DNA of 64,000 bases from positions 64,001-128,000 of the IMG/VR virus record IMGVR_UViG_3300032116_000013, one strand, 5' to 3'. Both the position numbers and the translations under genes were made by a program. The notes below the pieces were generated by a model, which did no database searches, was not told where the DNA came from, and saw only the letters and a list, made by a program, of their open reading frames with translations. The stretch is from a virus. Within the stretch, counting starts at the first letter, position 1; every line of letters starts with the position of its first letter. Positions 10,629-36,236 of the stretch are shown piece by piece.

Positions 10629-10702
10629 GGGACTGAAACATTAAAGTGATGTAACGGACTTTTAATCCGTAAAAGAGGGAGCGTTACCCTCCAGTCCTAC
10701 CA
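10629..10702 (+). tRNA. tRNA-Lys(UUU), non-canonical T-loop
   Basis: acgga-ctTTTaa-tccgt; T-loop AGCGTTA. Confidence 0.9.
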
Positions 10703-10709
10703 TACGTTC

Positions 10710-10785
10710 GGGTCTATCGTATAACGGTGATTATATCTGGCTCTTAACCAGTTTGATGCAGGTTCGAATCCTGCTAGACCCACCA
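10710..10785 (+). tRNA. tRNA-Lys(CUU)
   Basis: ctgg-ctCTTaa-ccag; CCA. Confidence 0.95.
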
Positions 10786-10789
10786 ATTT

Positions 10790-10863
10790 ATCTCGATGGT
10801 GTAATGGTAGCATACGAGTCTCCAAAACTCTTGGTTGCGGTTCGAGTCCGTATCGGGATACCA
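10790..10863 (+). tRNA. tRNA-Trp(CCA)
   Basis: gagt-ctCCAaa-actc; CCA. Confidence 0.95.
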
Positions 10864-10865
10864 TT

Positions 10866-10914
10866 CTGTCTCTGATGAGTCCGTAGGGACGAAACGCTGT
10901 GAAGCGTCAGACAG
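10866..10914 (+). ncRNA. Hammerhead ribozyme (type I)
   Basis: ctgtct-CTGATGA-gtcc-gtag-ggac-GAAA-cgct-gtga-agcg-TC^-agacag: full core and stems I-III. Confidence 0.9.
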
Positions 10915-11165
10915 CAGCGCGACCTTGTGGTGTAGCGTGATGCAAAAAACACGTGGGGTAAAAAGTCCATCATTAAGTTGGGAAAATCCACCTCTGTTTA
11001 GGTGCTGAGATGTATCCGATAGAGCCTGTGCATGGGCTTGTGTAGGCATCCAAAGCAAAACCACACTTTTGAATTCAGATGCATAGGTTCCTCGCGACCT
11101 TAAAAGCGAGCGCGTAGCATGATAACGAACTCTCATGCAGGAGCGGTGGTTACTTACACCGCACG
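10915..11165 (+). ncRNA. Structured RNA(s) downstream of hammerhead, including H-type pseudoknot
   Basis: Stems gtggt/accac, cacct/aggtg, gcatga/tcatgc, gcggtg/caccgc; pseudoknot 11085-11110. Confidence 0.45.
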
Positions 11166-11286
11166 TATTTTAAAAAATTCGCGCACCCGAGAAAAAGTAA
11201 CCAATCTTCACTCGAGCCGATCGCAGGAATACTTGACCCATCCTTCACGCCAACCAATACTGCGTGTAAACAACGGTCTCTTTTTT

Positions 11287-11361
11287 TGGCGTGTAGATCA
11301 GCGGTAGATCAAGTGACTGTTAATCACTCTGTCGTAGGTTCGATCCCTACCACGCCAGCCA
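11287..11361 (+). tRNA. tRNA-Asn(GUU)
   Basis: gtga-ctGTTaa-tcac; CCA. Confidence 0.95.
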
Positions 11362-12827: not shown

Positions 12828-12901
12828 GCCTCTTTAGTTCAATAGCAGAACACATTCTTGGTAAGGATGAAACGATGGAGCGTAACCATCATGAGGCACC
12901 A
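12828..12901 (+). tRNA. tRNA-Thr(GGU), non-canonical T-loop
   Basis: cattc-ttGGTaa-ggatg; T-loop AGCGTAA. Confidence 0.9.
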
Positions 12902-13164: not shown

Positions 13165-13239
13165 GCTGCTTTAACTGAGATAGATTAGTGCGAGTCTGAA
13201 GAACTCGATAGGTTGGTGCGATACCAACAGGCAGCACCA
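13165..13239 (+). tRNA. tRNA-Phe(GAA)
   Basis: cgagt-ctGAAga-actcg; T-loop TGCGATA. Confidence 0.9.
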
Positions 13240-35291: not shown

Positions 35292-35861
35292 ATGGATTAT
35301 TTTGATATGGATGATGTAGCGTTACCGACAGTTCTCCCAGCAGTTGTGTTCAAGACACGAGTGCGCGATGAGTCTGTTGGCGGACCGAACCCATACCGAT
35401 GGCAGGATGTATCATCGTATGACTATTTCGGTGGCAAGCGTGTTGTAATTTTTTCACTTCCTGGTGCATTCACACCGACTTGTTCGACAATGCAACTTCC
35501 TGGCTTTGAAGAAAAGTATGACGTGTTTCGTATGTTTGGAATTGATGAAATCTACTGCGTGTCAGTGAACGATGCATTTGTGATGAATGCTTGGGCGAAG
35601 GCTCAGAACATTCAGAACGTAAAGGTCATTCCTGACGGTAGTGAGAAATTCACACGTGCGATGCGCATGCTTGTTGATAAGGACAACCTTGGGTTTGGAT
35701 TCCGTTCATGGCGTTATGCGGTTGTTGCCAACAACGGCACCATTGAGAAGTGGTTCGTTGAGCCAGGCAAGGAGCATAACTGTGCGACTGATCCGTATGG
35801 TGAGACTTCGCCTGAGAATATTTTGACTTATTTGAGGTCAGAACATTTGAAGACACTTTGA
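35292..35861 (+). CDS. Peroxiredoxin (Prx5-like)
   Basis: FSLPGAFTPTCS; CVSVNDAFVM; RSWRYA. Confidence 0.95.
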   Translation: MDYFDMDDVALPTVLPAVVFKTRVRDESVGGPNPYRWQDVSSYDYFGGKRVVIFSLPGAFTPTCSTMQLPGFEEKYDVFRMFGIDEIYCVSVNDAFVMNAWAKAQNIQNVKVIPDGSEKFTRAMRMLVDKDNLGFGFRSWRYAVVANNGTIEKWFVEPGKEHNCATDPYGETSPENILTYLRSEHLKTL

Positions 35862-35871
35862 ATAAATAAGA

Positions 35872-36193
35872 ACTAATGGTTGTAAACTGACGACTAAAGG
35901 TGTTTCGGACGTGGGTTCGACTCCCACCTTCTCCACCAAAAGCATACTCGCCATCCCTCTACGATGGTCTCGCAAAGTCTTCCTAGGAGATGAGATAGTT
36001 GCAAGTAGTATGCTCCTGATGGGGAAGAAATGGCTTCGACGGGGCAAGTAATAAACCGACAGCAACCAGTGAGGCGACTGACTTAATCAGCGCAAAACTA
36101 GTAAACGCAAACGATGATGTTTACGACATGGCTCTTGCTGCTTAATAGCAGTATAAGAATACCAGAGTTGACCACTTGGTAACAGAAAGGTCA
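35872..36193 (+). ncRNA. ssrA: Circularly permuted (two-piece) tmRNA, tag ANDDVYDMALAA
   Basis: T-arm+CCA (ends 35938) precedes 5' ggggaag (36021); G3-U70; tag 36107-36145; 5' boundary approximate. Confidence 0.9.
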
Positions 36194-36196
36194 GGA

Positions 36197-36223
36197 GGGT
36201 GGGGTAACACCCACCCTTTTTTT
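36197..36223 (+). terminator. Rho-independent terminator
   Basis: gggtggg-gtaaca-cccaccc-T7. Confidence 0.9.
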
Positions 36224-36236
36224 GGAGAATAAATTT

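Follow-up and report, generated by a model that had tools for sequence, protein, structure and literature searches.

A self-cleaving ribozyme that stands inside a phage tRNA cluster raises the question of which of its two products the cut serves: the tRNA that lies upstream or the RNA that lies downstream. The case considered here is a hammerhead motif found in a stretch of 64,000 nucleotides (hereafter, the window), which comprises bases 64001–128000 of a complete-looking IMG/VR record of 197,424 bases. The record carries T4-like baseplate genes, including a gp6 homologue that is 35–38% identical to the versions of cyanophage, Pelagibacter phage HTVC008M and Methylophilales phage Melnitz, and contains 27–30 tRNA genes. 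Additional Rfam tRNA matches that ARAGORN does not call (10629–10699, 12828–12898 and 13165–13236 (+); 43.7–49.5 bits) could be unusual or degenerate tRNAs of the array. The window also harbors a permuted (two-piece) tmRNA of the betaproteobacterial type at 35833–36236 (+), with 145.9 bits for tmRNA_permuted and 129.9 bits for beta_tmRNA; its tag, as given by ARAGORN, is ANDDVYDMALAA. The tmRNA type hints at a betaproteobacterial host.

The hammerhead motif behind tRNA-Trp

The sequence-only reading had described an intact hammerhead 2 nt past tRNA-Trp. This description is borne out: the core, the three stems and the GUC triplet lie where they had been placed, and the predicted fold agrees. 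The features, all on the plus strand, are the following:

10790..10863 (+): tRNA-Trp with a CCA anticodon and an encoded 3' CCA (ARAGORN; Rfam tRNA, 55 bits), separated from the hammerhead by a 2-nt spacer
10866..10914 (+): type I hammerhead ribozyme (core, stems, Rfam match, fold, descriptor scan, covariation)
10866–10871 with 10909–10914 (+): stem I, CUGUCU with AGACAG, 6 bp, open
10872–10878 (+): catalytic core CUGAUGA
10879–10890 (+): stem II and its loop, GUCC-GUAG-GGAC, 4 bp, closed by G10.1–C11.1
10891–10893 (+): core GAA
10894–10907 (+): stem III, ACGCU-GUGA-AGCGU, 5 bp, capped by a GNRA loop and starting with A15.1–U16.1 (A10894–U10907)
10908 (+): position H17 (C17), a C; predicted GUC/A cut between 10908 and 10909

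Every invariant base of the core is present (C3, U4, G5, A6, N7, G8 and A9; G12, A13 and A14; the A15.1–U16.1 pair; and a non-G residue at H17), and the layout is that of a type I hammerhead, with three helices around the core, stem I open and stems II and III closed by loops. The minimum-free-energy fold of 10864–10916 is exactly this three-stem structure. The Rfam model Hammerhead_1 (RF00163, clan CL00010) matches over its full length with a score of 30.5 bits (E 1.7e-5 in 701 nt), which does not reach the Rfam gathering threshold of 34 bits; the shortfall against the consensus sits in the loops and in stem I, not in the core. Over the 197-kb genome, the match has an E value of 1.1e-6 and is the sole credible one. 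A hammerhead descriptor of our own also found 10866–10914 as a single site in the 197-kb genome, and the chance level, estimated from 30 dinucleotide shuffles of the genome with laxer stems (4/3/3), was 0.1 matches per genome.

Covariation was examined in 18 aligned type I hammerheads with a common stem II. In this alignment, 99.3% of cells are paired, compared with 29–40% after sliding of the partners; two-sided changes occur in nine pairs, and none of 500 shuffles (0/500) reached the observed values. Stems I and III covary in the formal count, while alternative stem II pairs were read from four sequences. Among members of the module in which this ribozyme is joined to the RNA described below, the GUCC/GGAC pairing of stem II is replaced by GCCUG/CAGGC, GCUUG/CAAGC or GUUC/GAAC, and N7 varies; stem III has 4–5 bp with differing GNRA-type loops and inserts of up to ~100 nt. 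Stem I (CUGUCU/AGACAG) is near-constant within the module, so that the evidence for its pairing there comes from the wider set of hammerheads. Conservation of the core in relatives, on which the earlier reading had staked its claim, is found together with compensatory changes in the stems. Because of such conservation and compensatory changes, a chance origin of the motif is excluded and, on comparative grounds, the motif at 10866–10914 is a genuine hammerhead.

A tertiary contact is a feature of most natural hammerheads, albeit not a strictly defining one. We searched 10866–10914 for a contact between stem I and loop II or a pseudoknot, and none was recognised; loop II (GUAG) has no conserved complement in the flanks of the copies found in the window and in contigs L001, L030 and L017. 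As a stem I/loop II contact or a pseudoknot speeds natural hammerheads at low Mg2+ (Perreault 2011, PMC3088659), failure to find such a brace suggests that the rate of cleavage in vivo could be low.

The RNA that begins at the cut site

The stretch that follows the predicted cut contains a conserved RNA with a nested pseudoknot. The elements of this RNA, and those found farther downstream, are listed below:

10909..11070 (+): pseudoknotted RNA, conserved and of an uncatalogued family, whose first base lies at the cut site (match to model R1; covariation)
10914–10920 with 10935–10943 (+): P1, irregular hairpin beginning 5 nt past the cut, with an invariant loop (GACCUUGUGGUGUA)
10926–10931 with 11060–11065 (+): pseudoknot, UGUGGU with ACCACA
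~10944–11000 (+): variable insert
11004–11009 with 11051–11056 (+): P2
11016–11027 with 11034–11046 (+): P3
11071..11165 (+): lineage-specific 3' tail with three hairpins, common to the window and its close relative L151 only
11233..11261 (+): sigma-70-like promoter match, TTGACC-17-AATACT, ahead of tRNA-Asn (11287–11361); a consensus match only

Model R1, built from 12 relatives with the window left out, finds 10909–11070 with 47.8 bits (E 8e-9) as the only copy in the genome. The structure was drawn from alignments and RNAalifold. Because the alignment made with R1 misplaces the long insert (in the window and six other sequences), pairs were counted on MAFFT alignment A1 and on anchored segments. 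In a set of 11 sequences to which the window belongs, 92.6% of cells are paired, compared with 30–43% when the partners are slid. Compensatory changes were found in 15 pairs, two of them in the pseudoknot, and five out of five helices are supported. In the pseudoknot, UGUGGU/ACCACA is replaced by UAUGGU/ACCAUA or GGUGGU/ACCACC. A possible second pseudoknot, ACC 10922–10924 with GGU 11001–11003, is made of invariant bases only and thus has no covariation to score. The length of the conserved RNA is ~115–190 nt across contigs and ~160 nt in the window, where its 3' end (~11070) is made of ACCACA and a run of U.

A search of 10909–11070 against Rfam 15, with E values up to 10 on short inputs, yielded chance-level matches only (COG2908, E 0.036; SNORD67, E 0.071). 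Folding of the 286-nt precursor formed by tRNA-Trp, the ribozyme and the RNA gave a z score of −0.26, and neither the cloverleaf nor stem I was recovered. Other interpretations of the region were considered and rejected. Coding readings (120 aa on the minus strand, 10774–11136; 57 and 62 aa on the plus strand) matched no PHROG family, and are contradicted by covariation and by insert lengths that are not multiples of three. An HDV-like or theta reading was likewise discarded, as the knotted RNA lacks a catalytic C and a P3, there is no match to an Rfam HDV family at E up to 10, and the cut lies 45 nt from the CCA.

The boundaries of the RNA differ in part from those initially proposed. A structured RNA had been drawn at 10909–11165: its start stands, while its end must be moved, since the conserved part stops at ~11070 and the remainder (11071–11165) is lineage-specific. 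The last hairpin of the tail (11143–11162) is terminator-like and is followed by a run of T. Hence, the transcription unit may end there, and the released RNA may extend to ~11165, with 10909–11070 as its only family-wide part. The loop of the first tail hairpin, GACCUUAAAA, echoes the GACCUU motif of the P1 loop.

Distribution and neighborhood of the ribozyme–RNA cassette

An exact-pattern scan of IMG/VR with the core and stem II yielded at least 119 loci, a subset of which have identical stem I and post-cut sequence (AGACAGC..GACCUUGUGGUGUAG..). When the scan was performed with the 3' RNA motif, and was therefore blind to the ribozyme, 14 loci were found, and a hammerhead was located directly upstream in 14 out of 14. 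In IMG/VR and JGI metagenomes, ~38 distinct contigs, from T4-like phages that are distantly related, carry both the ribozyme and the RNA, and in each one the RNA starts at the cut site. As AGACAGC was a requirement of the metagenome scan, the constancy of stem I in the results of that scan is biased; about 12 of its matches were discarded as chance occurrences inside coding DNA, devoid of ribozyme and RNA body. The proteins of the carriers are 30–69% identical to those of the window phage, and the carriers can thus be considered diverged relatives. The tail-fibre gene is a poor marker for relatives because it contains collagen-like repeats.

So far, the cassette has been found in uncultured contigs only. 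A BLASTN search of 50,697 cultured-phage records with the ribozyme and RNA of the window and of L030 gave no match, and a scan of the genomes of 185,579 species gave five matches, all of them chance occurrences inside coding DNA, so that the cassette is absent from that set.

The sequence upstream of the ribozyme varies. Five different tRNAs sit 2–10 nt before it across contigs, including tRNA-Trp (window and L151), tRNA-Asp, tRNA-Asn and tRNA-Val. Other upstream tRNAs are tRNA-Cys at 45 nt and tRNA-Thr at 73–74 nt, and still others lie at greater distances; tRNA-Ala and tRNA-Glu are also among the upstream neighbors. In at least 14 contigs, the ribozyme lies 45–900 nt from any tRNA or behind a promoter-like site. 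Such a site is found in contigs of the L030 type, where a sigma-70-like sequence with an extended −10 (TTTACA-17-TGnTAGTAT) lies 16–23 nt before the ribozyme, and the ribozyme is kept. Downstream of the RNA lies either a small wHTH gene or the next tRNA, the latter right after ACCACA and the run of U, 119–205 nt away from the cut. In many relatives (e.g., L001:233–1112 (+)), the cassette heads a block made of genes for a wHTH protein (Pfam HTH_39), Hsp20 and a T4-type DNA polymerase. In the genome of the window phage, homologues of this block are located at ~4.8 kb and 21 kb and the cassette at 74.9 kb, ~50–70 kb away, indicating that the cassette has changed locus.

Certain copies depart from the common form. 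A structured insert of 50–100 nt is found in stem III of L098:9786–9924 (−), L147:11193–11330 (−), L175 and L177, and H17 is A instead of C in the L147 cassette. In L178:3777–3931 (−), a G5U change gives the core the sequence CUUAUGA, which should be inactive, and the RNA has a 7-nt deletion; this copy is probably decaying, or else a sequencing error is involved. In L151:1144–1515 (+), two tandem copies of the RNA are found behind one hammerhead, the second copy has no ribozyme of its own, and an identical 44-nt tail (GAAUUCAGAUGCAUAGG..GCGAGCGCG) comes after each copy. tRNA-Trp and the UU spacer are shared by L151 and the window, the ribozyme is identical in both, and the second RNA copy of L151 is window-like. 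The window resembles the outcome of a deletion by which the ribozyme became joined to RNA copy 2. The second copy of L151, without hammerhead, and the altered core of L178 are exceptions to the pairing of ribozyme and RNA, and indicate that the ribozyme is not strictly indispensable.

A different arrangement was detected in L002, L013, L022, L032, L041, L075, L078, L086 and L110, which carry the same hammerhead (stems I and II) and no knotted RNA. In these nine loci, only a 15-nt hairpin (GACAG-CAAKA-CUGUC) comes between the hammerhead and the ribosome-binding site of a small ORF for a wHTH protein. This arrangement is the natural equivalent of RiboJ, a synthetic insulator. Its existence shows that the hammerhead is a portable 5'-end module.

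Role of the cut

When a type I hammerhead cuts, its catalytic body is retained by the 5' fragment, and the 3' fragment acquires a clean 5' end. This geometry suits the formation of a clean 5'-hydroxyl on the 3' fragment and is unsuited to finishing the 3' end of a tRNA. Furthermore, the upstream neighbor varies while the RNA is constant, an indication that the ribozyme belongs with the downstream RNA and not with tRNA-Trp. Hence, the cut most likely yields the first base of the knotted RNA instead of finishing tRNA-Trp at its 3' end. The explanation that we favor, and consider probable, is that an active hammerhead that cuts after C10908 serves as a dedicated 5'-end maker for the knotted RNA. 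The idea of a 5'-end-forming site within a mixed tRNA/ncRNA transcript had been advanced from the window alone, and gains support from the comparative data: a hammerhead upstream of each RNA copy in the ribozyme-blind scan, and a changing neighbor on the other side.

The proposed scenario is as follows. The hammerhead would be transcribed within a precursor of the phage tRNA cluster, would fold and would cut itself after C10908 (GUC/A). The upstream product would be tRNA-Trp with a trailer that comprises all but a small part of the ribozyme and is terminated by a 2',3'-cyclic phosphate. The length of this trailer agrees with the 45 nt initially estimated, as the encoded CCA ends at 10863 and the predicted cut lies after 10908 (10864–10908). 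The downstream product would carry a 5'-hydroxyl at A10909 and would consist of the ~160-nt conserved RNA, in which the loop of the irregular P1 hairpin is paired with ACCACA at the 3' end and a long arm is formed by P2 and P3. The 3' end of the RNA would probably be formed by a terminator, or by RNase P acting at the next tRNA followed by exonuclease trimming down to the pseudoknot, while the 3' end of tRNA-Trp would have to be generated by host nucleases. Ribozyme and RNA would travel as one cassette wherever they land in phage genomes. Cleavage in vivo, the chemistry of the ends, the formation of the 3' end of the RNA and the finishing of tRNA-Trp are steps that we infer.

RNA ligases that could rejoin or circularise the ribozyme products were also searched for. 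RtcB and Rnl2-type ligases are absent from the genome; a search for Rnl1 (PF09511) gave no match, and positive controls were likewise undetected. Circularisation of the products was discarded as a possibility because a single ribozyme is present.

Alternative explanations admit evidence on both sides. The location of the hammerhead just 2 nt past the encoded CCA might suggest that it trims or limits the trailer of tRNA-Trp in the manner of theta ribozymes, and the same ribozyme is found 2–10 nt behind a tRNA in five other distinct contigs. In addition, the cut and subsequent loss of the 6-nt stem I partner would leave ~15 nt beside the CCA single-stranded, and could expose an RNase E site. However, a cut 45 nt past the CCA would leave on tRNA-Trp a structured trailer blocked by a cyclic phosphate, unlike theta ribozymes, which cut at the tRNA 3' end itself (PMC10879173). 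The partner tRNA is not conserved either, with at least 14 contigs showing the ribozyme far from a tRNA (45–900 nt) or behind a promoter-like site, and none of the other tRNAs in the 27–30-gene array has a hammerhead. Processing of tRNA-Trp thus seems distinctly unlikely. A generic insulator or stabiliser, similar to RiboJ, would detach the upstream RNA and leave a 5'-hydroxyl that resists 5'-monophosphate-dependent RNases, with no specific tie to the knotted RNA. The nine loci where the hammerhead precedes a hairpin, a ribosome-binding site and an ORF (L002 to L110) fit this possibility, and so do many other phage hammerheads with this stem II that precede genes (our own scan; PMC3088659). 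Such a role overlaps with that of a dedicated 5'-end maker rather than excluding it, but it leaves unexplained why a ribozyme accompanies every independently found copy of the RNA and why AGACAGC is invariant at the RNA 5' end while stems II and III drift; we consider it rather unlikely as a full explanation.

It is also conceivable that the cassette is a selfish or hitch-hiking module that spreads among phages and is useless to the window phage. Its presence at different loci in related phages (L001 type versus the window genome), the tandem duplication in L151 and the apparent deletion in the window are compatible with mobility. Against this view, the structure is under strong purifying selection across carriers with proteins 30–69% identical, neither an endonuclease nor a transposase is linked to the cassette, and the only matches in the genomes of 185,579 species are due to chance. 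A selfish element is therefore very improbable. As for a chance or dead motif that does not cleave, the score under the Rfam cut-off and a minimal architecture with no identified tertiary brace could be invoked in its favor; in turn, conservation, compensatory changes and a chance expectation of at most 0.1 matches per genome at laxer settings make it hardly credible.

If the hammerhead is the 5'-end maker of the knotted RNA, a further step can be tentatively proposed: together they may constitute a previously undescribed class of phage small-RNA gene that needs a ribozyme-made 5' end (either the 5'-hydroxyl or an exact AGACA overhang) and acts on tRNA or the machinery of translation, or else serves as a decoy for host defences that target RNA. 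We view this proposal as possible, though short of probable. Retention of the ribozyme despite a promoter-like site ~20 nt upstream, a candidate dedicated promoter, suggests that the RNA needs the ribozyme-made end, and action on the translation machinery or as a decoy would explain the place of the cassette among phage tRNA genes. Thousands of hammerheads are found in phages and bacteria, and their biological roles are largely guesswork. A small-RNA gene class of this kind, if true, would give phage hammerheads a concrete biological job. The ribozyme described here has a specific substrate relationship, as it heads a conserved pseudoknotted RNA that lies outside RNA catalogues. The cassette may thus be viewed as a new component of phage tRNA clusters, beside theta ribozymes and the unexplained stable RNAs of T4, and as a natural counterpart of the ribozyme insulators of synthetic biology.

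Type I hammerheads of phages and prophages are well known, and have been described flanking protein genes (Perreault et al. 2011, PMC3088659). The catalytic core, the three-stem junction, the open stem I, the GUC cut and the phage origin are the same in the published examples and in ours. In contrast, the subfamily described here is fused to a conserved ncRNA, is usually found in or beside tRNA clusters, scores just below the Rfam cut-off and has no recognised stem I/loop II brace. Among the open-access papers searched, none was found to connect a hammerhead with a conserved ncRNA located in phage tRNA clusters. HDV-like theta ribozymes have been proposed to process the 3' ends of gut-phage tRNAs (Kienbeck et al. 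2024, PMC10879173), and hammerheads are not mentioned in that study. [quoted passage not shown]

The rnaC and rnaD genes of T4 (NC_000866) encode small stable RNAs that are interleaved with tRNAs, as is the RNA of the T4-like phage studied here. Unlike the cassette, they have no hammerhead, and no sequence resemblance is detected by eye; their tRNA-like ends (CCA, T-arm) suggest processing of the RNase P type. Nested-pseudoknot RNAs such as HDV-like ribozymes and flavivirus xrRNA are alike in that the 3' tail pairs with the loop of a hairpin and a long arm is inserted in between (a-b-a'-d-d'-b'). Unlike the HDV-like fold, the knotted RNA has no P3/L3, and the junction before ACCACA reads UAA, AAA, UGA, CAA or AGA, with no conserved C. 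In synthetic insulators (RiboJ; ribozyme–gRNA–ribozyme constructs), a 5' hammerhead provides an exact, promoter-independent 5' end. Those devices are engineered, whereas the hammerhead cassette described here is natural and conserved.
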